The translations under genes and the position numbers were made by a program. This document shows, piece by piece, positions 26,859 through 44,476 of a DNA stretch of 64,000 bases. Source of the DNA: a virus; IMG/VR virus record IMGVR_UViG_3300046517_002960, positions 32,001 to 96,000 of that record; one strand, written 5' to 3'. The stretch's first letter is position 1, and each line of letters starts with the position of its first letter. The notes beneath the pieces were generated by a model. That model did not search any database, was not told where the DNA came from, and worked only from the letters and a program-made list of their open reading frames with translations.

Positions 26859-27128
26859 CTGCGTCCGGCAGACTCGCCAGCGGCGGTACGCACGGGTCTC
26901 GCGGTTGGACCGGTCGATTTCCAGCCTGAGCACGACAGTAGGCACCAGGACGAGGTAGAACCGCCAGCCTTCCCACCAGCCGCCGTCCCAGCCCTGCACG
27001 TCATGAACCCAGTACAGGCCGATCCAGGTGTCGTGCGGGTCGAAGTACGGCCCCCTGAAGTGCACCCGCGGATAGTCCTCATCCGGCAGGGCGGCGACCC
27101 TGGCGCGGCGGCAGCCGGTCACGCTCAC
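26853..27128 (-). CDS. Trp-rich hypothetical protein
   Basis: FDPHDTWIGLYW..FYLVLVPTVVLR. Confidence 0.6.
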   Translation of the reverse strand: MSVTGCRRARVAALPDEDYPRVHFRGPYFDPHDTWIGLYWVHDVQGWDGGWWEGWRFYLVLVPTVVLRLEIDRSNRETRAYRRWRVCRTQL

Positions 27129-28423
27129 CACCCCGCCACGGTCAGCTCGCGCTTCGCACGAGTCACAGCCGTATAGAGCCAGCGGGCGCGGGTCCCGGTG
27201 CCGGGCGGCGGCCAGGGCTCCTCGATCACCAGCACCTTGTCCGCTTCCGAGCCCTGGCTCTTGTGCACGGTCTGGGCGTAGCCGTAGTCGAACAGGGCCA
27301 GGTCGCGGTCGCGGATGCCGCGGGCGGCCCCGGGCGGCGCGCCGAACAGGCGCCGGGCCACCTCGCCCTGCCACGGCTCGTCCAGGGCGTCCAGCCCGAT
27401 CGTCATCGGGCAGGTCTCCTCGCCGCCGCGGAGCCGGGGCTCGCCCGCCTGCAGGATGACGCCGCGCTGGCCGTTGAACAGCCCCTCGGCGTGGTTGTTG
27501 CGCAGGCAGATCACCACGTCGCCGGGCTGCGGCGGGCCGCTGCGCCCGTGCCAGGCCCGCATCGCCTCGTTGTGGTACGCGCGGGTGCGGTTGGTCGCGC
27601 ACAGGATCATGTCCGCCTCCCCCGGGTGCAGCCCGTCGTACCCGATCCGGTCCGGGCGGATCTTGGCCACGCCGGGGCCGTACACGCCGTGCGGGATGTG
27701 CCCCTGCTCCCGTGCCCAGCGGGCGACGTTGAGGATCGCCATCCCGGCCGGGTCGGCGGCGCTCTGCCGGTGGATCTCCTCCAGCCGCAGGTGCGGCGCG
27801 GCCATCAGGGAGAACGCGGACTGGACCGGGGGCAGCTGGCCGTGGTCGCCGATGGCCAGCACCGGGACGCCGTGGCTGGTCAGGTCGGCCCACAGCCGCT
27901 CCGGGATCATGGACGCCTCGTCGGCGACGACCAGGTCCAGCCCGGCCAGCGGCTCCGGCACCGGGGTGAAGCTGACCTGCTGCGCGGCCGGGCACGGCTG
28001 CTCACGGCGCTGGTGCGCGGCGCAGCGGTCTTCCCCGGCGGGCAGCATCCCGGTGCTGTCCGCGCAGTAGGCCAGCACGGCCGGGCGGTACAGCAGCCGG
28101 TGGATGGTGGACACCACGGCGGGGCTGGCGCGCAGCGCGTCCAGCTTGCCGCGCAGCACCTGGACCGCCTTGCCGGTGTAGGCGCAGAACGCGATCCGGG
28201 CATCGCCCAGCAGCCCGGGCAGCAGCCCGGCCAGGGTGGTCTTGCCGGTGCCGGCCAGGCCGCCGAGGATCAGCGGGCGCGGCCCCCCGTCGTCGTACCA
28301 CCGGGTAACCGCGTCCAGGGCCTGCCGCTGGCCGTCACTGAGCTGGGCCAGCAGGGCGCCGTGCAGCGAGGCGGGCGACGGCGCGGCGGCCCGGGCCAGG
28401 GCGGGTCCCGCGTCAGCCCTCAC
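27125..28423 (-). CDS. RecD/Dda-like SF1 DNA helicase
   Basis: GLAGTGKTT, TIHRL, DEASM, GDHGQLPPV, HRQ, TVHKSQGSE, YTAVTRA. Confidence 0.92.
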   Translation of the reverse strand: MRADAGPALARAAAPSPASLHGALLAQLSDGQRQALDAVTRWYDDGGPRPLILGGLAGTGKTTLAGLLPGLLGDARIAFCAYTGKAVQVLRGKLDALRASPAVVSTIHRLLYRPAVLAYCADSTGMLPAGEDRCAAHQRREQPCPAAQQVSFTPVPEPLAGLDLVVADEASMIPERLWADLTSHGVPVLAIGDHGQLPPVQSAFSLMAAPHLRLEEIHRQSAADPAGMAILNVARWAREQGHIPHGVYGPGVAKIRPDRIGYDGLHPGEADMILCATNRTRAYHNEAMRAWHGRSGPPQPGDVVICLRNNHAEGLFNGQRGVILQAGEPRLRGGEETCPMTIGLDALDEPWQGEVARRLFGAPPGAARGIRDRDLALFDYGYAQTVHKSQGSEADKVLVIEEPWPPPGTGTRARWLYTAVTRAKRELTVAGW

Positions 28424-28632: not shown

Positions 28633-28973
28633 GCCGGCCTCTGGCGCAGGTGCGGCGCGGCATGGTCCGGGTTGGCGGGCCGGGACCCGGGCGCCCGGTT
28701 GACCGCGCGCAGCCGGGCACCGGAGGGCAGCCACGGAGCGGCCGGGTGGACCTCGCGCGGCTCGCCGTCCAGGTGCAGCGCGTCCCACGGGACCCGGCAG
28801 CCCGCCTCGTGCACGTCGGCCCACCCCTTGCCCATCCGGGCCGGGTCGGCGGCGATCAGCGCGCCGCAGCACGCCGCGCGGACCCACAGCGACCGCGGCG
28901 AGGGCGGCGGGGTCCGGTGCTCCCGGCGCCGCTGACGCGGATCCGTGTTCCGGTACTTGCGGCTGCGGCTCAT
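28629..28973 (-). CDS. hypothetical protein
   Basis: RBS gaacaggagag. Confidence 0.6.
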   Translation of the reverse strand: MSRSRKYRNTDPRQRRREHRTPPPSPRSLWVRAACCGALIAADPARMGKGWADVHEAGCRVPWDALHLDGEPREVHPAAPWLPSGARLRAVNRAPGSRPANPDHAAPHLRQRPA

Positions 28974-29485
28974 CTGCTCTCCTGTTCCTGGTCATGACGC
29001 CCGCGCTGGCCCGCCGCCGCGCCGCCGTTGCGGCTGATGTACTCCCGCCAGGGCACGAACCCGCCCTGCGGCCAGAACCCCCACTCGCCGCGGCGCGGGC
29101 CGGTGATGACCAGCGTCCACAGCGGGACTTCGACGGTCGTGATCATGTGCGCGGCCCGGCGGCCCATCCGGTGCACGGTGAACCGCTCGCACAGCCGCAT
29201 GAAACGGCGGCCCGGGTCGCGCTTGTCCGGCCAGACCCGCTCGATGTAGGACCCGTGCAGGATGAGCGAGGCGAACGCCCACGGGTGATCGTGCGGATCC
29301 GGGTCCTTATCCGGCCGGTGAATGTGGTGCAGGTACACCGCGAGCCAGGGCGTCTCGATCAGCCGGAGCCGGTCCAGGTACGGGTCGCCGTCCGCGCCGA
29401 TATCGACGCCGGACAGCAGCCCCCACCGGACGTGCGCGCTGCCCGCGGTGATCTTGCGCGTTGCCGTTGCCTGCCTGCCGTTCAT
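28970..29485 (-). CDS. cupin-fold protein
   Basis: YLHHIHRPD..PHDHPWAFASLILHGSYIE..H..WTLVITGP..WGF. Confidence 0.75.
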   Translation of the reverse strand: MNGRQATATRKITAGSAHVRWGLLSGVDIGADGDPYLDRLRLIETPWLAVYLHHIHRPDKDPDPHDHPWAFASLILHGSYIERVWPDKRDPGRRFMRLCERFTVHRMGRRAAHMITTVEVPLWTLVITGPRRGEWGFWPQGGFVPWREYISRNGGAAAGQRGRHDQEQESR

Positions 29486-29680
29486 CTGCTCTCCTGCCCT
29501 GTCATGGCTGTCTCCTGCCCTGTCGTGATTATCATCTGCTGCCGCACCGGCACGGCCCGTGCCGCGGGCAGCCCTGCGCGCACCAGTGGCCTTCGGCCGC
29601 GCCGTTGCCGGGGCTGGCGTCGCGGCTCCAGCACCGGCAGCGCCGGGTCCGGGCGCGGCGCCACCACCGGGCCACCGGGT

Positions 29681-32600
29681 TCACGAGCTGTCCGGCCAGG
29701 CCTGGAACGGACCCTCGCCGGCCGCCTCGATCGGCACTCCGTAGATCTCGTAGAACCGCTGGCTGCGCATGCACGCGATCAGCGTGGCCAGCGCCTCCTC
29801 GGCCTCGGCTAGCGGCACGAACGCGAACACCTCGTCGTGGATGGGCAGCAGCGGGTAGTGCCCCCACCGGGTGTCCTTCCACCGCAGCACCCCGTCGACC
29901 AGCAGCTCGCGGGCGGTGCCCTGGATGCAGTTGTGCGACAGGAACCCGTCCGCGATCAAGGTCCGGGTGCTGGTCTGGATTGAGGCGAGCACCAGGTCCC
30001 CGGCAGGCTCTACCGCTTCCACCTGAACAGGTTCGGTCATCCCGGCGGTCACCGAGATGTCCTCCCACAGCGCCTCGTAACGCGGCTGGAAGCGCACCGG
30101 CTGGAGCGTGCCGAGAATCTGCATGATGTGCCGGACAGATGTAGTCCCGGCCCGGTGGCACCGGGACGTGTTACCCAGTGAATCCGGCCGGAGCGTGTGC
30201 ATCAGCCCCAGGTCAGTCATGCCCTTGCAGAACGCGTCCATCACCGGGCCTGGATTCTGGGCGAACTCCAGCTTGCGGGCGGCCCGGACCTGATTCGGCG
30301 TGCAGATCTGGAGGTTTGCCTCGCCGTCGTACAGCCCGGCCAGCCAGCCAGCCGTACGAGTGTCAGCTTCCCGCCAGGTCCCGATGGACAGCAGCTCGTC
30401 GCCAGGCTGAAGTACGTCAGCCTGCACCCAGGACAGGTACCGGCCGCGCTTGCCGTTGAGCTGCCTGCGCCGGACAAGCCACAGGTGGTCCGCGCTGCAC
30501 GTGACAGCCCGGCCGCCGGCCCGCACCAGGACAGACGGCTTGCGCACCATGCTGGCGGCTTCCACGACAGCCGTCCGCATCCGGCGATGCTGATTACCGG
30601 GCAGCCGGTTCTCATCGAAAGCCACGAGCCGGTCGCCCACCTGAATCTCCGCGGCTGGCACGTACCGCAGATCGCTTCTGAGCACGGGCGTGTCCGGGGC
30701 CAGGCAGTAGTTGCCGGCCGCGTGGTGACGGCCGCGGGGCAGCCAGATGGTCCGGCCGGAGTACGCGGTCCAGGCCCGGTTGCCGGATTGCGCGTAGGCC
30801 CGCATCTCCTGGTCCCAGGCGGCGTACCGGGGAGCGATCTGCTCGAACGCCCGGTGCACCGCCCGGCCGTGCGCCACTGGCAGCCCGACCTGCTTCGCCC
30901 CGGTGTCCGGGCCGCCGCCGAACATCTTACTGAACACGATGCGCTTGGAGTTGTAGCGGTCTTCCTTGCCGGCGTTCCCGCCGAAGGCCATCCGGGCGGC
31001 CATCCAGTGCAGCCCCTTCTGGTCCAGCCCGCAGGCCGGGTGACACGGGTCGTTCCCGCACGCCTGGCAGCGGGTGGACAGCTCGGCCTCCAGCAGCGCG
31101 AAGTCGCCGCTCAGCGCGGCGCCGACCCGGATCTCCACGCCGGAGAAGTCGGCGCTGATCCCGGCCATCGGCACCCCGTACGGGCTGGTCAGCTCGTCGT
31201 CGGCGATGACGCAGGCGCGGATCCCGCCCTGCCGTGAGAATTGTTGCCCGTTGGGTCTCACGCAACTACTGCGACCCGTGTCGGCGTTGATCGTGTAGAC
31301 CACCGGGCGCATCCGGCCGTCGCCGCGTTCGCACAGCGTGTTCAGCGGGTTGAGCAGCAGGCCGAGGGTAGTGACGTCATGCCGGTACTCCAGGATCTGC
31401 CGGCACAGCTCGGAATGCTCGTAGAAGTCCCGGCCGTCCTGGCCGTCCTGCTTGGCCAGCGGCTCGAGCACGTCCTTGGCCGCGGACGGGCCGCCGCTCC
31501 CGGTCCGGCCCAGCGGCACGCCCATCGCGGCCAGCGCGGCCGGGACTTCCTTGGACGAGCTCGGGTTGGCGATGTCCGGGCACAGCTCGGCCACCCGCCG
31601 CCGGGCTGCCTCGCGGGCCTGCTCGTACTCGGCGATCTTGGCCTGGATGTGGCGGTGGTCCAGCCGGAACCCGTCGTGCGCGACCCGGGCGCACATGGCC
31701 TGGAAGACCCGCTCGCGGGCCAGCACGTGCTCGTCCGGGCGGGGCAGCACGCGCAGCACCGCGGCCAGGTCCAGCACGTCGGACCCGGCGTACCGCTCGA
31801 ACGTCTCGCAGTCCTTGCGGACCATGGCCCAGCCGGATTTCTCCCGCGGGGTGCTGGCCTCCAGGTTGGTCAGCCACCGGCCGGACTTGAACAGCGCGCT
31901 GCGCGCCTCGTCGGCCGGCTTGGACGCCGAGTAGCCGCCCAGCAGGCCGAGGGCGAGCCGCTTCAGCTCGTTCTCGTCCGACCCGGCCAGCGACGGGTCG
32001 CCCAGCTTGGAGATCAGCACGGAGTCCTCCATCCGCGCCCACATGGAGTCGCGGTCGCCGAGCCCGTGCCAGGCCAGCGGGACCAGGTCGGCGCAGGCCG
32101 AATGCGCGTGCAGCTTGCCGGCCCGGGCCACCAGGTCCCGGATCGCCGCCGCCTGCGCATCGTCGGAGGGGTCGAAGACCGCGGCGATGTGCTCCCCGCC
32201 CAGCTGGACCAGCCGCAGCTCGTGGTCGGCATGGCTGACCGGGTAGCCGGAGTGCTCCACGTCCACCGACAGGTCCGCCAGGTACGGGGTGACCGCGGCG
32301 ACCGCCTCGGCGATCGTGCACGGCAGCACCATCGGCGGCGCGCCCGGGTCGGCCGGGTTCCGGGCGGTGAGCACCGGCAGCGGGTACACCGGGCCTTCCA
32401 GCGCCGGGTCCGGCCGCAGCGGCTTCGGCTTCGGGGCCTTCGGCTCCCGGGGCTTGCGTTCTGCTCGCTTCCGTTCGGCTGGCTTCCGCTCTGGCTTGTC
32501 CGCTACAGGCTGTGACGGAGCTGCCGGGTCCGCTGCCGGGGGTGCCGCTGCCGGGGATTCCTGAAGGGATTGAGGGTCTGAGGGGTTATTTCTATTTTCC

Positions 32601-35347
32601 TGCGTGTGCGTGTGTGCGTGTGCATGCGCATTAGGAATAGAAACCAACCCTTCATACCCTTCAGGAGGAGAAAAACTGAAGGGTTGCTGGATGGTTTGAC
32701 CTGCAGTTTTTCCGTTCTGAAGGGTTTGGGCTACAGGCGGTGCAAACCCTTCAGTACCCTTCATGAACCCTTCAGCAGGACGGGTGGAACCTCCGCTGAT
32801 GCCCATGAACTCGGCCGGAGTCGGCGTGAAGCTGCCTGGCGGGCGCACCCGGAGCGGCCGGTAGTTGCCGTCTGCCCGGTGAACGGCCTCAAACCCCTCA
32901 CTGTTCAGGCGCCGTCCCCAGGCCGTCTCGGACGGGATCTGGGAGGGGTGCATATTCTTCCGGCGGCAACTCTCCGTGAACGCCTCGTAGAGCTGGTGGG
33001 ACTTGGTGCCCGGCTCCCAGGGCTCGCACTCGTCCTCTACCCAGAGCATGACCCGGTCCTGGCTGGCCTGGATTTCCAGTGCCGCCCGCCGGCCGGCCTC
33101 GGGGGCGCTTTCGCTGCCCGCGGACCCCGGCTCGGCCAGCCACCCGGCCGCCTCGGCCATCAGCGCGGCGAGCACGCCGGGGGCCTCGCGCCGCCAGGCC
33201 GGGCCGTTCACGTTCCCGATCGCGGCCCGGGCCGCGCGCACCTGCGCCGGGTCGCCGTCGCACGGGATCAGCCGGACCCGCCGCCGGATCGCCGGGTCCA
33301 CCAGGTTCGGCTCGTGCTCCGGGTTGGCGGTCAGGATCAGCGTGTGGGTCGGGGGGAACGTGACCGGGTTCTCGGCCATCCGGTTGCCGGTCAGGTCGGC
33401 GCCCCCGGTGATCTGCTTGAGCCGTTCGGTGGCCATCGTGCCGGCCCGGGGGGCCTCATCGATGAAGGACAGCCGGCGGCCTTTCAGCGCGTACACGATG
33501 GAGGCGTGCGACCGGTCGGCCGGGGACAGCAGCCGCGCGTCGGCGGTGTGCGCGTACGTGCCGAGCACGCTCATCATCAGGTCGATGACGGACGTCTTGC
33601 CCACGTCGGTCTCGCCCAGCATGATCGGCAGCGCCTTGTCGGAGTACCCGGTAACCGCGATGGCCAGCACCCGCAGCGCCCAGGCCCGCAGCTCCGCGTC
33701 CGGCCAGACGGCTGCCAGGAACGCGTCCCATAGCGGCGTCTTGCGCTCGCTGTCGGGGGTGACCGCCGCGCTGTGCAGATGCGGCACGCCCCAGTCAATG
33801 CGCCGGGTAGGTTCCGGGCTGCCCGCGAACTCCCGCAGGTCCCACGGCACCCCCCCGGCCCACAGGATCTCCCGGTCGGCATCCAGCCCGGCCAGGTCGA
33901 TCGCCGAGGGATGGAAGCCGACGCCGGTCTGCGCGTTCATCTTCCCGGCGATCCCGGCCGAGGACGCGTTGGTGCAGAACCTGGCCCGCCGTTTGGCCTG
34001 GGCCTTTTCCGGGGTGCCGTCATCGGCGGCCGGGTCGCCGGGCAGCATCAGCCAGCTGACCAGGTCGACGGCCCAGGCGGCGGCGTTGCCCCGGCGCGGC
34101 ACCCAGGCCTCCGGCCCGCGCACCAGCCAGGTGCCGGCGTCGGGGGCGTACCGCAGCGCCGGGTGCACCCGGGTCAGCACGTCCCGGGCCAGGGTGGCGT
34201 CCAGTTCCGCGGCCGTCTCGAACGGGGCGGTGCCGATTGCCTGGTACGGCGTCCAGAGCCGGGCGGGCTCGATCGGCTCGGGCTCCGGCTCGCCCTCGGG
34301 CACGCCCGGGGCCGGGGCCTGGTACTCCTGGCGGGCCGCCGCGTTCACGGTCAGCACGCACGGGTCCCACCCGGCCGGGCGCGGCCCGTGCTCGGTGACC
34401 GCGGACCGGGCGGCGCCCAGCACCATCTCGGCGAACTCGGCCTGGCGGCCCTCCCCGGCGGTCAGGTCGTTCCACAGCTCGTCCAGCGCCCGGATCGCGG
34501 TCAGGTAGCCGGGGTGGCCCTTGGCGCCCAGCATCACCGCGGCCAGGGTGTACTTCAGCATCGCGTCATGCCGCGTGCCCGGCTCGGCCCGGGTCAGGGC
34601 GCGCCGCGCCTCGTCCATCACCGCGGCCATGTCCACGCACCACGGCGCCCCGGCTGCCTCGCTGCCCTCGAGTTCGAGCAGCAGCTGCTGCCCGGCCTCC
34701 GGGGGCGCGTTCGCCCCGGCCGGCTTCGACGCCCCGGCCGCCAGAGCGGTCACCCAGGCGGGCGGCAGCTGCGGCAGCTGGTCCGGCCGCGGGATCTCGC
34801 CCGGGTCCGCCGCCGAGCCGTCCGGCCGGTACCAGGTGTAGGTGCCGTCCACCGCCCCGTCGTCGTCGTGGTGCGGGCTCGGCCAGACCACGGCGTACCG
34901 GTGGTGCAGCTGGATGATCTCGATGTCCGGGTCGATGGTGCCCGCGTACCGCTGCGCCGGCGCCCGGAAGAACCAGATCCGCGACGGCTGGCCCGGCCCC
35001 CGCGCGGTGGAGGACCAGGTCGGCGGCAGCTCGCCCCACTCGGCTGCCCGGGCGGCCAGGGTCTGCGCCCCGTGCTTCTGCTTGCCGTGCTTGACGTACT
35101 GGTCGACGTCGATGCCGATGACGCCGGCCGGCAGCCGCAGCGCGACCGAGCTGCCGGGCCTGCTGCCGATCCAGCCGATCACCGTGCCCGCGTCGGTCCA
35201 GGCCCCGTCCGCCCCGGTGTAGCCCTCCGGCGGCGGGTACTTGCCCTGCGCGGGCACCGGGATGACGCCCGGCCACCCTTTCAGGAGGTAGTCCCCGGCG
35301 TGCTCCGCGTACGGGCGCGCCGAGATGCCGGGCGCCGCCGCCGTCAC
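29681..35347 (-). CDS. fused Prim-Pol primase / D5-like SF3 helicase / family A DNA polymerase, intein-containing
   Basis: GIDVD..IWFFR..YAVVWPS; GETDVGKT, FIDE, LKQITGG; DVEHSG exonuclease; ADFSGVEIR, SKRIVF, IHDE. Confidence 0.92.
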   Translation of the reverse strand: MTAAAPGISARPYAEHAGDYLLKGWPGVIPVPAQGKYPPPEGYTGADGAWTDAGTVIGWIGSRPGSSVALRLPAGVIGIDVDQYVKHGKQKHGAQTLAARAAEWGELPPTWSSTARGPGQPSRIWFFRAPAQRYAGTIDPDIEIIQLHHRYAVVWPSPHHDDDGAVDGTYTWYRPDGSAADPGEIPRPDQLPQLPPAWVTALAAGASKPAGANAPPEAGQQLLLELEGSEAAGAPWCVDMAAVMDEARRALTRAEPGTRHDAMLKYTLAAVMLGAKGHPGYLTAIRALDELWNDLTAGEGRQAEFAEMVLGAARSAVTEHGPRPAGWDPCVLTVNAAARQEYQAPAPGVPEGEPEPEPIEPARLWTPYQAIGTAPFETAAELDATLARDVLTRVHPALRYAPDAGTWLVRGPEAWVPRRGNAAAWAVDLVSWLMLPGDPAADDGTPEKAQAKRRARFCTNASSAGIAGKMNAQTGVGFHPSAIDLAGLDADREILWAGGVPWDLREFAGSPEPTRRIDWGVPHLHSAAVTPDSERKTPLWDAFLAAVWPDAELRAWALRVLAIAVTGYSDKALPIMLGETDVGKTSVIDLMMSVLGTYAHTADARLLSPADRSHASIVYALKGRRLSFIDEAPRAGTMATERLKQITGGADLTGNRMAENPVTFPPTHTLILTANPEHEPNLVDPAIRRRVRLIPCDGDPAQVRAARAAIGNVNGPAWRREAPGVLAALMAEAAGWLAEPGSAGSESAPEAGRRAALEIQASQDRVMLWVEDECEPWEPGTKSHQLYEAFTESCRRKNMHPSQIPSETAWGRRLNSEGFEAVHRADGNYRPLRVRPPGSFTPTPAEFMGISGGSTRPAEGFMKGTEGFAPPVAQTLQNGKTAGQTIQQPFSFSPPEGYEGLVSIPNAHAHAHTHTQENRNNPSDPQSLQESPAAAPPAADPAAPSQPVADKPERKPAERKRAERKPREPKAPKPKPLRPDPALEGPVYPLPVLTARNPADPGAPPMVLPCTIAEAVAAVTPYLADLSVDVEHSGYPVSHADHELRLVQLGGEHIAAVFDPSDDAQAAAIRDLVARAGKLHAHSACADLVPLAWHGLGDRDSMWARMEDSVLISKLGDPSLAGSDENELKRLALGLLGGYSASKPADEARSALFKSGRWLTNLEASTPREKSGWAMVRKDCETFERYAGSDVLDLAAVLRVLPRPDEHVLARERVFQAMCARVAHDGFRLDHRHIQAKIAEYEQAREAARRRVAELCPDIANPSSSKEVPAALAAMGVPLGRTGSGGPSAAKDVLEPLAKQDGQDGRDFYEHSELCRQILEYRHDVTTLGLLLNPLNTLCERGDGRMRPVVYTINADTGRSSCVRPNGQQFSRQGGIRACVIADDELTSPYGVPMAGISADFSGVEIRVGAALSGDFALLEAELSTRCQACGNDPCHPACGLDQKGLHWMAARMAFGGNAGKEDRYNSKRIVFSKMFGGGPDTGAKQVGLPVAHGRAVHRAFEQIAPRYAAWDQEMRAYAQSGNRAWTAYSGRTIWLPRGRHHAAGNYCLAPDTPVLRSDLRYVPAAEIQVGDRLVAFDENRLPGNQHRRMRTAVVEAASMVRKPSVLVRAGGRAVTCSADHLWLVRRRQLNGKRGRYLSWVQADVLQPGDELLSIGTWREADTRTAGWLAGLYDGEANLQICTPNQVRAARKLEFAQNPGPVMDAFCKGMTDLGLMHTLRPDSLGNTSRCHRAGTTSVRHIMQILGTLQPVRFQPRYEALWEDISVTAGMTEPVQVEAVEPAGDLVLASIQTSTRTLIADGFLSHNCIQGTARELLVDGVLRWKDTRWGHYPLLPIHDEVFAFVPLAEAEEALATLIACMRSQRFYEIYGVPIEAAGEGPFQAWPDSS
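29930..30706 (-). mobile_element. intein with LAGLIDADG motif in the PolA domain (259 aa)
   Basis: NY|CLAPDTPV ... WLAGLYDGE ... GFLSHN|CIQG. Confidence 0.9.
32561..32774. repeat. AT-richer iteron-like array (7x ACCCTTCA) plus alternating purine-pyrimidine tract; candidate origin
   Basis: ACCCTTCA at 32647, 32656, 32746, 32756, 32767; inverted at 32677, 32718; (TGCG/TG)n at 32601-32630. Confidence 0.7.
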
Positions 35348-35460
35348 GGCCGCCTGCCCTGGGTTTCGCGATGCATCGCGTGGCGGGGCAGCGTAAACGG
35401 CCCGCTGGCGGGTATGCTCTGGCTAAGCATGGTTCTCCTCACGGGGATCGTGCGGAGCAT
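35344..35460 (-). CDS. 38-aa leader ORF coupled to the replicase start
   Basis: SD GAGGAG plus ATG; TGA overlaps the GTG at 35347. Confidence 0.4.
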   Translation of the reverse strand: MLRTIPVRRTMLSQSIPASGPFTLPRHAMHRETQGRRP

Positions 35461-35477
35461 GGTTCTCCTCACGGGGA
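35426..35477. repeat. 22-bp direct repeat (RBS+ATG on - strand)
   Basis: AGCATGGTTCTCCTCACGGGGA at 35426 and 35456. Confidence 0.9.
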
Positions 35478-35609
35478 GCTGTGCGGCGCGTCACGTGGTC
35501 CCTTCCGGGAATGGGTCCCCGGCAGGCCGGGTGGTGCAGCGGTGAGATAGTCAGCTGGGTAGCGACTGGGCCGGGACCTTTACTGGGCAGTGGAGGTCCC
35601 GGCAGCCGC

Positions 35610-35810
35610 TCAGCCCTCCGGTCCGGTCCTCGTACGGTCGTCATGGTCTCGCTCCCTCGCCCTCGCGCTCTTTCCGTTCGTGGTGATCATCACGCCCCGG
35701 TACCGGCCCGCCGCCTCAGCCAGCAGCACGTTCGCGATGGCGCGCTCGTCGCGCAGCCGCAGGTGCACGTGGTCTCCGGGGTGCGGGCAGCCCCGGCGGT
35801 TACAGGGCAT
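35610..35810 (-). CDS. small hypothetical protein
   Basis: C..GCPHPGDH motif. Confidence 0.5.
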   Translation of the reverse strand: MPCNRRGCPHPGDHVHLRLRDERAIANVLLAEAAGRYRGVMITTNGKSARARERDHDDRTRTGPEG

Positions 35811-36219
35811 CTCCGGCCTCCCCCGCTCCGGCCTGCGCCTCCGGCCGGTACGGCACGCGGAACCGGGCGTGCTGTTCCCGCGCCACCTCCTCCGGCGTCA
35901 GCTCCTCCCCGGGCGGCAGGTACCGCCAGAAGTTCACGGCCGCGGCCGGGGCCGCGTTCACCGTGTCCTCGAGCGCGACGATGCCGTGCATCTGCAGGCC
36001 GCACTGGATGACCGGCCCGTTGCTGCCGCTGGCGGGCTTCTCGGTGACCCGGAAGACGCCCCAGCCGATCAGCGGCTCGGCCACGTAGCCGGGCGGGGTG
36101 CCCCCGGGACGGCCGGCGAACACGGCCCGCCAGCCGTACTCGGCCGCGATAATCGAGACCGGCTCGTAGACCGTGACCCGCTGCGGAGCCTGCGCGCTCC
36201 TGCTGCCCGCTGCTTTCAT
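35800..36219 (-). CDS. hypothetical protein
   Basis: SD gggagg; ATG at 36219. Confidence 0.65.
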   Translation of the reverse strand: MKAAGSRSAQAPQRVTVYEPVSIIAAEYGWRAVFAGRPGGTPPGYVAEPLIGWGVFRVTEKPASGSNGPVIQCGLQMHGIVALEDTVNAAPAAAVNFWRYLPPGEELTPEEVAREQHARFRVPYRPEAQAGAGEAGDAL

Positions 36220-39573: not shown

Positions 39574-42500
39574 TCAGTCCAGCCCCCCGAGCAGCATCCG
39601 GACATATCTGGGGTCCTTGTACAGCTGGCCCGCCTGGCCCGCCTTGTCTTTCAGCACCTCGCGACGGTACTGGTCGACCGTGTCCAGCGTGACGAAGTCC
39701 ACGATCTCCACGTGGTCCCACTTCTCGGCGCCGATCCGGTGCACCCGGTCCTCGGGCTGGATGGCCAGGTCCAGCTGGTAGGACCGCTGCAGCATGGCCG
39801 CGCTGTTGCTCGCGGTCAGGGTGATGCCGAGCCCGCCGGCGCCGAGCGTGCAGATGATAACGTCCAGCTTGCCCGCCTGGAAGTCCTCGACTGCGGCCTG
39901 CCGGGTCTTCTTGGTGACCCGCACGCCGGGCTCGCCGTACTCGCCGGAATTGCCCTCGCCGACGACGTAGCCGGTGCGCAGCCCGGCTTTGGCGCAGTAC
40001 TGCCCGGTGATCATGGCCAGCTGCCGGGACTCGGCGAACACCGCGGTGGGCTGGTCCGGCCGCTCGGCCAGCAGGTCCAGCAGCGCCTCGGCCTTCCAGC
40101 ACGGCGGCTTGAGGGTGACTGTGTAGTGCGGCTTGAGCAGCCCGGTGGCCTCGTCCAGCCGGTAGTCGACGGCGACGTCGGCGGCGCTCGACGCGAGCTG
40201 GGACAGCCGGGTCAGCTTCTCGATCGTGTACATGACCGGGAGCTCGCCGCCGTCCGGGAGCTCGGCCAGCATCTGATCGCGCATGGTGTCGTACGCGTGC
40301 CGCCAGGCCGGGGGCATCTCCGGGCGGCGCAGCGAGTAGATCTTGTCCGGCAGGAACGCCAGCACGTCGGCCTTGGCGACCCGGCGCAGCTGCCCGGCCA
40401 GCGCGGCGAAGAACTCGGCTTCCATCTCCGGGCGCAGGCCCAGGATCAGCTCGTCGTAGTCCCCGTTGCCGCGCCGGGTGGCCAGGTACCGCCGTTTCAG
40501 GTCTTCCTTGGACGGCCAGTCCAGCGGCGCCATGGTGAACAGCGGCTGGTAGATGTCGCCGAAGTCGTGGGTGACCAGCGTGCCCGACGCCCAGACCAGG
40601 GTCGCCGCGTAGTGCGCGACCCGCCACAGCGCTTTAGACTGCTTGGCCTTCGGGTTGCGGCCCAGGTGAGATTCGTCGGCGATGACGCAGGCGGCCCGGA
40701 TCTTCACCAGCAGGCCGCGCATGTCCGGGGCGTCCCGGCGCATCGTGGCGTAGGTGGTGATCAGGATGTACCGGCCGTGCTTCCAGCTGGCGATCCTGGC
40801 CCGCTTCGCCCCGCGGTGCAGGACCGGCTCCGGCCAGTGCGGCATCAGCTCGCGGATATGGTCCTGCCAGACGCGGGCTACCTCCCACGACGGCACGACG
40901 ATGACCATCGGGAAGACGTCGGTGCCGGCCAGGCGGCGGGCCTCGATGCCGAGCAGCGTCGACGCGGTGTTATGCGTCACCGCGAACCGGTCTGTAACGT
41001 ACAGGCGGGACGGGTGATCAATAGCGATGCACTGCATCGGCTTCCGGCCGGCGAACTCTGCTGAGACGAGTGACCGGGCCGGCTGGCGCGTGCTGTGCCT
41101 GTTTTTCCACAAGCAGGTCTTCCGGGACAGCCGGAACGGGGACAGCGGCTGTGGCAGGTTCACCGTGACCGTGTACCGCTCCCGGCCCAGCTGGAATCTT
41201 GCCGCCAGGTGCCCGGTGCCGCCCAGAGATTCGGCCAGCCACCGCACGTCCTCGGCCAGCTGCCGGCTGGATGAGCCGAACTGCGCGGTTCCGTCACGGC
41301 TCAGAACCCATCCATCGGTATCCATCAGTCCCTGCAGGACAGCAAGGCGGCAGCTGGCCGGGCTCATCTTGTAGGCGTCCGGGACGAACTTCGTCAGGCT
41401 TGAGCATCCACGCAGGCCCAGATCGGCCAGCGGGCCGGCAACCGGATGACACCTTTTTCCTGCTATCGGGAACCGGCTCCGGGTATCGTCCTTAACAGCT
41501 GCCTGGTAACAGCGCCCGCACAACCCTCGTGCGATGGCGATCCGCCCGCATGCGCAGATCCGGCCGTTCGCGGAACCGAGCGTGCTAACCAGCCGGTAGT
41601 CGTACTTTTTGCCCGGCTCTTTCTTCACGATGATACCGGGAGGAACTAGAGACTCGATGGACGCGACAATCTCGGCGTCAGCCGTTGACACCCGGGTTGA
41701 CCTGGTCGTGAACCCGCCGTCACCCAGCAGCAGGCCGAGCAGGTACGGGTCCAGCTCGCGTTTCGCGCCGCACTCAAGATCGGGGGCCGTGATCATCGGG
41801 ACGTACCACTTCGCACGGTCACTGTCACCGTTCGGAGCCCGGAGCCCGGCATCAATGAGATCCCGTAGCGTCCGGGTCTGCCAGTAATAGGGAAGCCGCT
41901 CACCGGTTGTCTTCGAGAGCATGCGGCGGTGCCTGCTTACCCGCCAGAGATGCTGGTCATTGCATTCAGCTGATGAGCCGTCGCTGAAGATGACTTCGTA
42001 GCAGTCTTGTTCTCCCTGCGGGAACACGCCGGTAACCCGGGATGGCGTGCCGTCTCCGGCGATCACCAGGTCGCCCGTGCGAATCTCGCCCATAGCCCGG
42101 AATCCGCTCGGGGTCAGCACTTGTGCGTCCAGTGGCTGTGCTTTCCCGGTGCCCGGCTCATCGCCCAGGAGGTACTTCCCGGCTGACGCGATCGCGGCGG
42201 CGCCGTCCAGCTGGTGCGGGTAGGGCGTGAACGACTCCGGCCAGCACCGCGGGATGGCGGGCGGTGGCGAGGTGCGGCGGATCGTCTCGGCGATGATCCA
42301 CTCGGTCAGCTTCGGCCAGGGCTTCCAGACCGTATGGCCGTCGTGGTTGTAGATGAACCCGAGCTGGACGATGGTGGCCCAGCTCAGCGGGTAGTACCGG
42401 GCGCCGGTCGGCTGGCCGTTCTCGTCCAGTGCCGATTCCCCGGCCGCCGTCAGCAGGTGCAGCCGCTCGGCGATGTTCTTCTTGTCATGCGCGGAGCCGG

Positions 42501-42675
42501 TGGCCCACAGCACCATGTGCCGGCCGTCCGCCGTCATCTCGCCGCGCAGGGCGCCATCGCCATAATAACCGTTCCGCGGCGGCTCGCGGTACGCCGGGAG
42601 CCGGTACGGGCCGGGCTGCTCCGGCGCCAGGAACATGGCCACGGCGTCGTGTGCCGCTGCTTCGGCGAGATTCAT
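39574..42675 (-). CDS. SNF2/DEAD-like SF2 helicase, intein-containing
   Basis: PYPHQ, DEPGTGK|T, DESH, ASGT, QPEDRVHRIG. Confidence 0.9.
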   Translation of the reverse strand: MNLAEAAAHDAVAMFLAPEQPGPYRLPAYREPPRNGYYGDGALRGEMTADGRHMVLWATGSAHDKKNIAERLHLLTAAGESALDENGQPTGARYYPLSWATIVQLGFIYNHDGHTVWKPWPKLTEWIIAETIRRTSPPPAIPRCWPESFTPYPHQLDGAAAIASAGKYLLGDEPGTGKAQPLDAQVLTPSGFRAMGEIRTGDLVIAGDGTPSRVTGVFPQGEQDCYEVIFSDGSSAECNDQHLWRVSRHRRMLSKTTGERLPYYWQTRTLRDLIDAGLRAPNGDSDRAKWYVPMITAPDLECGAKRELDPYLLGLLLGDGGFTTRSTRVSTADAEIVASIESLVPPGIIVKKEPGKKYDYRLVSTLGSANGRICACGRIAIARGLCGRCYQAAVKDDTRSRFPIAGKRCHPVAGPLADLGLRGCSSLTKFVPDAYKMSPASCRLAVLQGLMDTDGWVLSRDGTAQFGSSSRQLAEDVRWLAESLGGTGHLAARFQLGRERYTVTVNLPQPLSPFRLSRKTCLWKNRHSTRQPARSLVSAEFAGRKPMQCIAIDHPSRLYVTDRFAVTHNTASTLLGIEARRLAGTDVFPMVIVVPSWEVARVWQDHIRELMPHWPEPVLHRGAKRARIASWKHGRYILITTYATMRRDAPDMRGLLVKIRAACVIADESHLGRNPKAKQSKALWRVAHYAATLVWASGTLVTHDFGDIYQPLFTMAPLDWPSKEDLKRRYLATRRGNGDYDELILGLRPEMEAEFFAALAGQLRRVAKADVLAFLPDKIYSLRRPEMPPAWRHAYDTMRDQMLAELPDGGELPVMYTIEKLTRLSQLASSAADVAVDYRLDEATGLLKPHYTVTLKPPCWKAEALLDLLAERPDQPTAVFAESRQLAMITGQYCAKAGLRTGYVVGEGNSGEYGEPGVRVTKKTRQAAVEDFQAGKLDVIICTLGAGGLGITLTASNSAAMLQRSYQLDLAIQPEDRVHRIGAEKWDHVEIVDFVTLDTVDQYRREVLKDKAGQAGQLYKDPRYVRMLLGGLD
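40969..42141 (-). mobile_element. Ala1 (class 3) intein with LAGLIDADG endonuclease (391 aa)
   Basis: GK|AQPLD ... HLW ... LLLGDGG ... GLMDTDG ... MQCI ... THN|T. Confidence 0.9.
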
Positions 42676-42695
42676 GCCGGGGTACCTTCTGCCGT

Positions 42696-42968
42696 CTACT
42701 GCGCCTGGGGGTCCGTGCCGGGCGCGAACGCGGTGCCGCGCAGGTGCCAGCGCTCGCACATCGGGGTGCCGGTCAGCGGCTTGCCGTCCAGCCCGGACGG
42801 GGCCGTGGCGGCAGTTGCCCGGCCGGCCTGCCGGATCACGCCTCCGCGGGGGACCGCGCCGTCCGCGTGGCAGGGGCGGGCGCAGCCGCAGTGGCCCTCG
42901 CGGGCCAGGGTGTCCTCGGCGTTGGCGCGGATCCCGCAGTGAGCACCACATTCGAGGGTCAGGGCCAC
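42696..42968 (-). CDS. small Cys-rich protein
   Basis: SD gggaggga; Cys clusters. Confidence 0.5.
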   Translation of the reverse strand: MALTLECGAHCGIRANAEDTLAREGHCGCARPCHADGAVPRGGVIRQAGRATAATAPSGLDGKPLTGTPMCERWHLRGTAFAPGTDPQAQ

Positions 42969-43005
42969 GGTATCCCTCCCGGGCAGTGGGGTCGGAGGGG
43001 TGAAG

Positions 43006-43061
43006 GCCCCGGGCGGGCCGGCTGCCGTCGTCGGAGGAGAACGGCGCCGTCCCGCCCGGGG
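43006..43061 (-). terminator. stem-loop downstream of the SSB-like gene
   Basis: ccccgggcggg / cccgcccgggg. Confidence 0.45.
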
Positions 43062-43075
43062 CGGCGTGCGGGGGC

Positions 43076-44476
43076 TTACTGCGGCTGGGGCTGCATGTTC
43101 ACCTGCTGCGCCGCCAGCTTGCTGATCAGCGCCAGCTGCTCGGGGTTCATGCCGGCCACGTCCTCGGCGCTGACGCCGGGGGGAAGCGGGGCGGCCTGAG
43201 CCTGCGGTGCTGGCGGACCTGGCTGGTACGGCGGACCCGCGGGCGCGGGCTGGGCGTGCTGGGGCTGCTGGTACTGTCCGGCGGTGGCCATGGCGGCCTG
43301 GGTCGCGTTCTGGACAGCCTGCCCGGCCGCGGACTGCGGGGTGCCCTGGGGTGGACCCTGCTGCTGCGGTGCGGGCGGCTGGCCGGGCAGCTGCTGCGCC
43401 GGCTGGGGGTAGCCCTGCGGGACGCCCGGAGGCGGACCCTGCTGGTAGCCTCCTGGCGGGCCTACAGGGTAGGTCCCGTACTGCGCCGCGTTCTGCACGT
43501 CCTGCCGGAACTGGTACTGCGGTTCCTGCTGCTGGTACTGCGGCTGAGGCTGCTGCGGTGCCGCCGGGGCAGGCTGGGCCGGGGGGGCCTGGGCCTGCTG
43601 TCCGTCCGGCGCGGGGGGTACCCCGGAGCCGTCCGGCCGGCGGTAGACGATGTTGTGCAGCTTCTTGGCGTTGAGGTTGGGGATGTTCCGGTCGCCGACG
43701 TAGGTGATCGTGATGATCGCGCCCATCTCCGGCGGCCCGGCGGGCGCTCCGGCCCGGCCCATCGCGGCGGCGAGCTCGTCACGCTCGCTGCCGCGGACGT
43801 ACCAGGTCGCGCGCCCGTCCGGGAACTCGATCGACTCCTGGACGGCCAGCGGGACGGTCATCTGCCACTTCGGCCGCCCGTCACGGAACTCCAGCCCGCG
43901 GCCGGTGGTGAAGTCGGTCTGCTGGGTGACGTCAGCGTGGGTGACCGGCCGCGCGACCACCCCCGTGATCGACTGGCCGACCTGCTTGTGCAGGAACGAG
44001 GCGATCGACCGGCCGCCGCCGGAGGGCTGGTTGAAGAACAAGTCCAGGTCGCCCTGGGTCGCGGGCGGGCGCTGCTGCTGGGCCTGGCCGGCGAACCCGC
44101 CGGGGCCGGGCTGCTGCCACTGCTGGCCAGCCGGCGGACCCTGGTAGCCCTGCTGGGGGATGCCCTGGTAGCCCTGCTGGGGGATGCCCTGGTAGCCGGG
44201 CTGCGGGGCGCTGGGAGGCGGACCCTGGTAGTAGCCCTGGACGGGCATCCCCGTGTAGCCGGGCTGGGCGGCCGGGGCGGGGGGCGGGGGCTGCTGCGCG
44301 TAACCCGGGTCGGGCGGCGCGGGCGCGTACCCTGGCTGGGCCTGGGTGTAGCGCGGGTCGTAGCCGGGCTGGGGCGCCGGGGCGGGTCCGGGGGGCGGGG
44401 GCTGCTGCGCGTAGCGCGGGTCGTACTGCGGGTCCTGCGGTGGCTGGGCGTACCGCGGGTCGTAGAGCTGGGACAC
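43076..44476 (-). CDS. putative ssDNA-binding protein with Pro/Gln-rich arms
   Basis: Central ITGVV..QQTDF..DGRPKWQ..WYVRG..ITITYVG; lies between helicase and exonuclease genes. Confidence 0.6.
   Translation of the reverse strand: MSQLYDPRYAQPPQDPQYDPRYAQQPPPPGPAPAPQPGYDPRYTQAQPGYAPAPPDPGYAQQPPPPAPAAQPGYTGMPVQGYYQGPPPSAPQPGYQGIPQQGYQGIPQQGYQGPPAGQQWQQPGPGGFAGQAQQQRPPATQGDLDLFFNQPSGGGRSIASFLHKQVGQSITGVVARPVTHADVTQQTDFTTGRGLEFRDGRPKWQMTVPLAVQESIEFPDGRATWYVRGSERDELAAAMGRAGAPAGPPEMGAIITITYVGDRNIPNLNAKKLHNIVYRRPDGSGVPPAPDGQQAQAPPAQPAPAAPQQPQPQYQQQEPQYQFRQDVQNAAQYGTYPVGPPGGYQQGPPPGVPQGYPQPAQQLPGQPPAPQQQGPPQGTPQSAAGQAVQNATQAAMATAGQYQQPQHAQPAPAGPPYQPGPPAPQAQAAPLPPGVSAEDVAGMNPEQLALISKLAAQQVNMQPQPQ

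Follow-up and report, generated by a model that had tools for sequence, protein, structure and literature searches.

The subject of this analysis is a 64,000-nt window of viral DNA (positions 32,001 to 96,000 of IMG/VR record IMGVR_UViG_3300046517_002960; coordinates below are those of the window) in which a single open reading frame (ORF) on the minus strand encodes a DNA replicase that carries an intein and a disordered linker with an array of short repeats in its coding DNA. The record is one contig of 190,216 bp with 71% G+C, and its genes for a large terminase, a portal and a tape-measure-like protein of 2361 aa show that it represents a tailed phage; the owner of the replicase is an uncultured 190-kb tailed actinophage from soil. 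The original prediction had noted one uninterrupted frame of 1888 codons at this place, an observation that is confirmed: the ORF listing and the translation give 1888 aa without an internal stop, and the G+C content at third codon positions (GC3) is 0.94-0.98 in the catalytic domains, matching the expectation for a real gene at 71% G+C. The parts of the replicase and of its DNA are as follows.

29681..35347, minus strand: complete ORF of the replicase (1888 codons and a stop codon); starts with GTG, preceded by GGGCAGG 7-8 nt upstream
34358..35347, minus strand: AEP Prim-Pol, aa 1-330; DxD residues D80/D82, conserved H148/H149; phrog_11515
33788..34357, minus strand: bridge or D5_N-like region, aa 331-520; weak PF08706 match at 395-549 (E 0.047), within the coverage of phrog_1156
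33068..33787, minus strand: core of the SF3 helicase, aa 521-760, with GETDVGKTS (Walker A), FIDEA (Walker B) and LTAN (motif C)
32828..33067, minus strand: winged helix of origin-binding type, aa 761-840; predicted fold; wing residues H823 and N828
32318..32827, minus strand: linker, aa 841-1010; low-complexity, Pro/Lys-rich, GC3 0.63
32562..32774, both strands: iteron array, seven exact copies of TGAAGGGT and two one-mismatch copies within 213 bp
32587..32646, no strand assigned: A/T-rich core of 60 bp, bounded by the inner iterons and containing a (CAC GCA)n tract; candidate for an unwinding element
31718..32317, minus strand: 3'-5' exonuclease, aa 1011-1210; Exo I D1029/E1031, Exo II D1087, Exo III Y1186/D1190
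30707..31717, minus strand: N-extein of the family A polymerase (PolA), aa 1211-1547; contains D1400 (motif A) and K1468 (motif B); ends in ...AAGNY
29930..30706, minus strand: 259-aa intein at aa 1548-1806, with Cys1, SADH as block B (H74), a single LAGLYDGE module and SHN at its C-terminal end; the next residue is Cys+1
29684..29929, minus strand: PolA C-extein, aa 1807-1888; begins CIQGTARE..., motif C HDE 1837-1839

The chain thus runs from an AEP Prim-Pol through a D5/P4-type SF3 helicase, a winged helix of the P4-alpha/RFX type and a disordered linker of ~170 aa to a DEDDy 3'-5' exonuclease and a family A polymerase. The domain list of the original prediction (AEP primase, D5-like SF3 helicase with winged helix, exonuclease, PolA) is borne out by matches to PHROG, Pfam and NCBIfam models together with invariant catalytic residues. 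Among the PHROG families, phrog_11515 ('DNA polymerase/primase') matches residues 12-298 (E 4e-34), PHROG 1156 ('DNA primase') spans residues 9-824 (E 3e-102) and phrog_17 ('DNA polymerase') spans residues 1065-1548. For the helicase, PF19263 (DUF5906, D5-like SF3 NTPase) scores 31.1 bits against a cut-off of 27.6, and TIGR01613 (NCBIfam, C-terminal part of P4-family primases) matches 528-799 with 99.1 bits, slightly below its cut-off of 108.7; PF00476 (DNA_pol_A) scores 76.8 bits against 34.3. PF09250 (Prim-Pol) was detected in 8 of 18 aligned family members (best E 4.8e-22) and PF01612 (exonuclease) in 6 of the 18, the latter model staying below significance on the window's own replicase sequence. 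Across the 18-member alignment, D80/D82 and H148/H149 of the Prim-Pol, G583/K584, D630/E631 and N675 of the helicase, D1029/E1031, D1087 and Y1186/D1190 of the exonuclease, and D1400, K1468 and H1837/D1838/E1839 of the polymerase are all invariant. Among solved structures, the N-terminal 830 residues match only those of the African swine fever virus primase-helicase C962R (phmmer, E 1e-6); the family profile searched against the PDB matches Taq and Klenow polymerases (E 1e-40).

The fused layout is the usual state in a large family of actinobacterial phages and prophages, and the concept of such a fusion was already known. Our search of 5.8 billion proteins, restricted to lengths of 1038-3304 aa, gave 265 matches; the best 120 of them all have PolA and nearly all have DUF5906 and/or Prim-Pol in addition, typically in 1550-1650 aa, and among them are proteins annotated at NCBI for Nocardioides, Micromonospora, Jatrophihabitans, Labedaea and Prauserella. 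A scan of species genomes contributed 33 loci of the family and a scan of IMG/VR 63; one group lies on prophage-size contigs of ~36-54 kb (42-47% identity) and a second on phage contigs of 139-210 kb (54-62% identity). Megablast of positions 29000-36000 found no match among 50,697 phage records, and tblastn against the same records returned just separately encoded primase/helicase and Pol I, with 25-30% identity; in the cultured phages of INPHARED, the two halves of the replicase are adjacent genes. Helicase-primase-polymerase fusions were published in 2016 for Pas55 of the Actinoplanes phage phiAsp2 and gp55 of Lactococcus phage 1706 (Kazlauskas et al., PMC4889955). AEP-PolA fusions have been noted in the Hot-Spring cluster by Czernecki et al. 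2023 (PMC10201439), who list D29-like PolAs of actinophages with 'no known partners'. Our literature search found no paper on this actinobacterial family of fused replicases. The rarity that the original prediction had attached to PolA in a primase-helicase fusion is therefore not borne out by the more than 120 clusters of fused proteins, the 33 and 63 loci and the published triple fusions, and the architecture search proposed there found the layout to be widespread.

The same loci bear on whether the frame is real. The original prediction had raised the concern that an assembly error conceals a stop. An assembly or sequencing artefact that masks a stop or a frameshift at 32.4-32.8 kb was weighed here, and the composition of the junction is indeed odd, with 50% G+C and a GC3 of 0.63. 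We consider such an artefact extremely improbable: a continuous frame is found in dozens of independent assemblies, including isolate genomes of Nocardioides, Micromonospora, Kribbella and Labedaea, and because at least 55 independently assembled loci keep one open frame across the junction, through helicase, exonuclease and polymerase, an assembly error is excluded in practice. Moreover, the closest relative, P0002, is 85% identical to the replicase straight through the linker, and is 265 aa shorter. Two loci that are 77% identical to P0002 (L106 and L107) served as stand-ins for its DNA.

The linker differs from the rest of the gene at the DNA level. GC3 is 0.63 at aa 836-1010 versus 0.94-0.98 elsewhere in the replicase, and an island at 32560-32780 has ~50% G+C with a minimum of 0.40 over 40 nt. 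The window contains seven copies of TGAAGGGT, where 0.71 are expected and none of 100 shuffles reaches seven; all lie at 32647-32774, and the whole 190-kb genome has no further copy. Five of the exact copies are on the coding strand and two are inverted, codon phases 0, 1 and 2 are all used, and the two one-mismatch copies push the array out to 32562. Three direct copies are spaced 10-11 bp, and the A/T core is flanked by two direct copies (32647-32663) and two inverted near-copies (32562-32586). Adjoining the A/T core, a (CAC GCA/ACG)n tract at 32600-32650 (minus strand) encodes the linker peptide HAHAHTHT, a run of His-Ala/His-Thr repeats, and the pattern TH..A.THA.E recurs in the family consensus of the linker.

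Conceivably, the repeats could belong to the protein, as a peptide-level repeat of EGF, EGY and KGT motifs, rather than to the DNA, and AEGF, TEGF and PEGY do recur in the linker. We regard this as very improbable. Copies of the 8-mer are found on either strand and in each of the three phases, where they yield the unrelated peptides EGF, MKG, TLQ and PFS, which identifies a DNA-level repeat and rules out a peptide repeat, and the same kind of array is non-coding in split relatives (see below). The ratio of nonsynonymous to synonymous substitution rates, 0.5-0.56 in the linker versus 0.39-0.51 in the domains, is not clearly different and is a weak argument either way.

Comparable arrays occur throughout the family. 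In ~60 loci, G+C within the ORF is lowest at aa 820-905, and 5-14 copies of a lineage-specific 8-mer lie 0-350 nt past the end of the winged helix. Nearly every copy of each lineage's 8-mer within its 16-kb locus sits in the linker region, and at least seven copies of one 8-mer are present in 31 of 44 linker windows versus 6 of 570 control windows. The iterons share the motif A-ACCC-NN-CA, in which NN is lineage-specific (TT, TC, GT, GA, TG, AG or GC), apart from a few other cores, and relatives keep the same order of direct copies, A/T core and inverted copies. As a separate observation, the six control windows (1 kb each, outside the linker, loci L009-L107) hold an 8-mer repeated 7-10 times; these could be second binding arrays (cf. 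P4 crr) or unrelated repeats.

The reading frame is kept open across the arrays. In 37 loci with 312 exact iterons, 120 forward copies carry TGA and none of these is in frame, and the linkers of these loci contain no stop triplet in frame and 351 in the remaining two phases, a count to be read with the caveat that the loci sampled were mostly fused ones. The absence of in-frame stops next to 351 out-of-frame ones argues that the fusion is maintained by selection.

Some relatives are split. In L077, L078 and L079, the primase-helicase and the exonuclease-polymerase are encoded by separate genes, and in L077 (8272-8480) and L078 (8269-8481) the iterons lie in a 200-nt non-coding spacer between the stop codon of the first ORF and the ribosome-binding site (RBS) and GTG of the exonuclease-polymerase gene. 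The iteron is GGTGTGCT in L077 and of the TGGGTCA type in L078. These two are closely related phage contigs of 163-181 kb whose spacers contain iterons, an A-rich tract and inverted iterons, and both the C-terminal ends of their first genes and their iterons differ. L059 and L027 are split between exonuclease and polymerase instead. At 9540-9600 of L059, a 210-kb IMG/VR contig, a TGA, a GGAG-type RBS and an ATG separate a 1204-aa Prim-Pol-helicase-exonuclease protein from a polymerase of its own; a coding gap was considered at this break and rejected, the site being an ordinary stop followed by RBS and ATG. The split in L027 is at about the same place. No repeat array follows the gene in the helicase-only acidobacterial loci L030-L037 or in L079; thus, the array is not universal outside the family.

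The domain encoded directly ahead of the array is a plausible reader of it. An AlphaFold 2 model of aa 761-840 is a winged helix with a predicted local distance difference test score (pLDDT) of 81-96. In a structure search of 48,161 chains, the origin-binding domain of P4 (1KA8) came first (Z 8.7, root-mean-square deviation 2.3 Å over 75 of 100 residues), followed by RFX5 (Z 8.5) and the DNA-binding domain of RFX1 (Z 8.0), with the next row at 6.2 or below. The RFX domain is a winged helix that reads bases via its wing. Across 52 distinct aligned sequences, the wing has two residues that vary with the type of iteron. Among 22 loci with GT iterons, residue 823 is His in 20 and residue 828 is Lys in 18; among 10 loci with TC iterons, residue 823 is Lys or Arg in nine and residue 828 is Asn in nine; and the three loci with TT iterons all have His823 and Asn828. 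Iteron position 5 is accordingly G with Lys828 and T with Asn828, and position 6 is T with His823 and C with Lys/Arg823. On a tree made without the columns of the winged helix, the iteron type changes 13 times, and of the 5-6 independent contrasts per trait, ~4-5 run in the predicted direction and none in the opposite one. Between the sister loci L016 (GT, His/Lys) and L048 (TC, Arg/Asn), DNA identity is 85-95% everywhere but at aa 816-863, where it drops to 57%.

Altogether, we consider a one-chain replicase interrupted by an intein, with the array in its linker-coding DNA as the origin, the likely explanation of the locus. In this model, the array is probably the phage replication origin, translated as the tether that joins the helicase half to the polymerase half. 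The wing of the winged helix (H823, N828) would read the two variable bases of A-ACCC-NN-CA, the SF3 helicase would load itself at the adjoining A/T-rich core as SaPI Rep or P4 alpha does, the Prim-Pol would prime, and the tethered proofreading PolA would extend. The fusion would have arisen, or would be kept, by read-through of the origin spacer that divides the primase-helicase and exonuclease-polymerase genes in split relatives. We also lean, with slightly more reserve, toward the most specific version, in which the linker is a translated origin whose iterons, 70-250 nt downstream, are read by the protein's own wing through a two-residue to two-base code (His or Lys/Arg at 823 for T or C, Lys or Asn at 828 for G or T). 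That the array is a binding site of the winged helix of some kind is more likely still than that it is an origin.

We read the array as an origin because its design matches that of P4 alpha and of the Rep and PriRep proteins of S. aureus pathogenicity islands (SaPIs). P4 alpha, like the replicase, combines a D5-like SF3 helicase with a C-terminal origin-binding winged helix, and 1KA8 is the best structural match of aa 761-840; it differs in that P4 has a primase of the DnaG TOPRIM type and no polymerase, whereas the phage replicase has AEP and PolA. P4 also has octamer iterons, and its ori and crr lie outside the alpha gene. Origin repeats within a gene are familiar from lambda O, where the iterons of ori-lambda are located in the part of gene O that codes for a linker. 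The initiator RepAM of pMEA300 similarly binds 8-bp repeats that lie inside the gene encoding it (te Poele et al. 2006, reviewed in PMC2440964). Both initiators thus resemble the replicase in binding multiple identical repeats inside their own genes, but they are unrelated proteins without helicase, primase or polymerase in the same chain. The SaPI proteins Rep1 and PriRep5 contain a self-loading SF3-type helicase and a C-terminal winged helix that reads 6-12 iterons right after rep, arranged in opposite orientations with an A/T-rich center, and iteron specificity follows the C-terminal domain of Rep (PMC9371898). By design, the phage replicase appears similar in joining a primase to an SF3-type helicase and winged helix with the iterons placed directly after the helicase coding region; in contrast, the SaPI ori lies past the stop codon and there is no polymerase, whereas here the array is translated as a linker into the exonuclease-PolA part.

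Other one-chain replicases are more distant. Pas55 of phiAsp2 is likewise an actinophage helicase-primase-polymerase in one polypeptide with PolA at its end (PMC4889955), but its N-terminus is a DnaG/TOPRIM-like DUF3854 and only its PolA aligns with the family (25% identity, E 2e-17); gp55 of Lactococcus phage 1706 has PolB in place of PolA (PMC4889955). Prex of the apicomplexan plastid has primase, helicase, exonuclease and PolA in one chain, and its PolA matches the family profile (E 7e-27), but its primase is of the TOPRIM type and its helicase of the Twinkle/DnaB type, whereas the replicase described here has AEP and SF3. The original prediction was fair in calling Prex an analogue built from other primase and helicase families, and the sequence comparison indicates that it is an analogue and, PolA aside, not a relative. 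PolAs of the Hot-Spring-1 group similarly share a chain with a primase-polymerase of the AEP type, in an account that does not describe this actinobacterial family (PMC10201439).

A different role for the array has to be weighed. The winged helix might bind it for autoregulation, partition or packaging while the origin lies elsewhere, or, in a variant of autoregulation, the array might act as an intragenic roadblock and so determine how much helicase is made relative to polymerase. A site within a transcribed gene would permit feedback, and the same possibility has been raised in the RepAM literature (PMC2440964); the GC skew leaves the array unmarked. We nevertheless regard this alternative as unlikely, since direct repeats at 10-11 bp, an A/T core and inverted repeats right behind an SF3 helicase with a P4-type origin-binding domain are the origin design of SaPIs and P4 (PMC9371898), and the genome contains no second array of the motif.

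Equally unlikely in our estimate is that the frame is translated as one but the enzymes work separately, through proteolysis of the linker or internal initiation past the array, so that the all-in-one protein is a precursor only. The linker is long and disordered, and split forms exist in the same family (L077/L078/L079 as well as L059 and L027). However, the frame is open in at least 55 loci although the iterons carry TGA, which argues for selection on covalent linkage, and neither a conserved protease site nor an internal RBS and start nor, in a consensus scan for promoters, a promoter-like site was seen.

Several points weigh against the translated-origin model of an intein-bearing one-chain replicase. 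The paired contrasts between wing residues and iteron bases are too few to reach p < 0.05 (median p 0.125 and 0.0625), and the cumulative GC skew of the genome has no clear extreme at the array. PF09250 gives no match to the window's own replicase even at E <= 1, and the support from this Prim-Pol model comes via the family alignment. The full-length replicase may be processed or supplemented by internal initiation, and the single LAGLIDADG module of the intein may or may not be an active nuclease.

If the array is an origin, one gene seems to hold all virus-encoded functions for starting and extending DNA synthesis plus the site at which synthesis starts. In this reading, the code would have changed repeatedly among family members, so that primase, helicase, the origin with its binder, and polymerase would travel as a single indivisible gene. 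It is tempting to speculate that such a compact module could provide actinomycetes of high G+C content with a portable, minimal replicon. The family would also offer protein variants naturally paired with iteron variants (TT, TC, GT, GA, TG, AG and GC), from which a wing-to-DNA recognition code might be read. Our literature search found a translated origin in no description of this replicase family. Thus, the rare all-in-one replicase of the original prediction is ordinary as first worded, and interest shifts to the compactness of the module. The earlier interpretation is partly supported: it had the domains right and the rarity wrong, and it missed the intein and the origin-like linker.

The 'full family A polymerase' of that interpretation stands in that PolA motifs A, B and C are all there, but it overlooked 259 aa within the palm. 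This insert, between ...AAGNY and CIQGTARE..., is missing from the alignment position in the 85%-identical P0002, and the same site at aa 1547 is occupied in P0019, P0020 and P0025. By its sequence features, the insert (residues 1548-1806) is a class-1 intein, a HINT domain with a LAGLIDADG insert, and it is predicted to splice. It has all the catalytic residues (C1, H74, H258-N259 and C+1), which are invariant or nearly so in 32 aligned inteins. NF038136 (NCBIfam, intein-containing radical SAM protein) aligns to all 259 residues (E 4.5e-11). Phmmer against 1.84 billion representative proteins gave 2654 matches, and in the best 150 of these the segment is nearly always whole, inside proteins of 192-2494 aa; the compact form of ~250-260 aa is carried by at least 2654 representative proteins. 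An AlphaFold 2 model from 32 sequences has a pLDDT of 94.6, and Foldseek found 53 PDB matches to it at E <= 1e-3; among the ~40 listed, all are inteins (VMA, PI-SceI, PI-PfuI, GyrA, DnaB, RecA) or other HINT domains (hedgehog, BIL). Phmmer of the intein against PDB sequences gave no match, Pfam on the intein alone gave a PDZ hint only, which we judged spurious, and a tblastn search of the genome turned up no further member of this intein family.

The N-x-x-x-Q that flanks the intein corresponds to N845...Q849 of E. coli Pol I (Klenow). The insert therefore splits the active-site cleft, and since the polymerase is interrupted between these two equivalents, the precursor is expected to be polymerase-dead until splicing, which would yield the predicted mature replicase of 1629 aa. 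If so, an intein placed in the active site of the polymerase would put a further, post-translational gate on the same chain. Residues 117-214 of the model form one LAGLIDADG half-domain (alpha-beta-beta-alpha-beta-beta-alpha) with conserved G124, D127, G128 and E129. It has one motif instead of the two of the usual endonuclease, and a lone half-domain would need to pair up for DNA cutting.

Within the family, PolA is interrupted at three sites: after TGR at ~aa 1360, inside motif B at ~aa 1472, and between N-Y and C-I-Q at aa 1547. Intein-bearing relatives include P0009, P0014, P0017, P0018, P0021, P0024, P0025, P0082, P0102 and P0103, with inteins of 242-349 aa; P0017 and P0025 have two each, and some inteins at the first site contain an HNH_3 domain. 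PolA is absent from the 19 host proteins recorded for 784 actinophage inteins in a 2025 survey (10.1101/2025.01.02.630785), and bacterial Pol I inteins were mentioned by Novikova et al. 2016. The three insertion points (motif 2, motif B and the N845-Q849 segment) therefore enlarge a small set of known PolA inteins.

As for the surroundings, a consensus scan of 29400-35700 found no promoter-like or terminator-like sites, an Rfam scan of the whole window gave zero families at the gathering score, and the replicase ORF contains no in-frame TTA codon. The ORF belongs to a replication module, because its same-strand neighbors include a Dda-like helicase and a 1174-aa helicase. The former (27125-28423, minus strand; phrog_325, E 4e-73) and a cysteine-dioxygenase-like gene (28970-29485, minus strand; phrog_4786, E 1e-40) lie close downstream of the replicase. 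The 1174-aa ORF (39574-43098, minus strand) has a DNA helicase match in its C-terminal part (phrog_62), and in its N-terminal part, residues ~260-610 match terminase, DnaC-like loader and primase families, which could reflect another inserted element or just a common P-loop.

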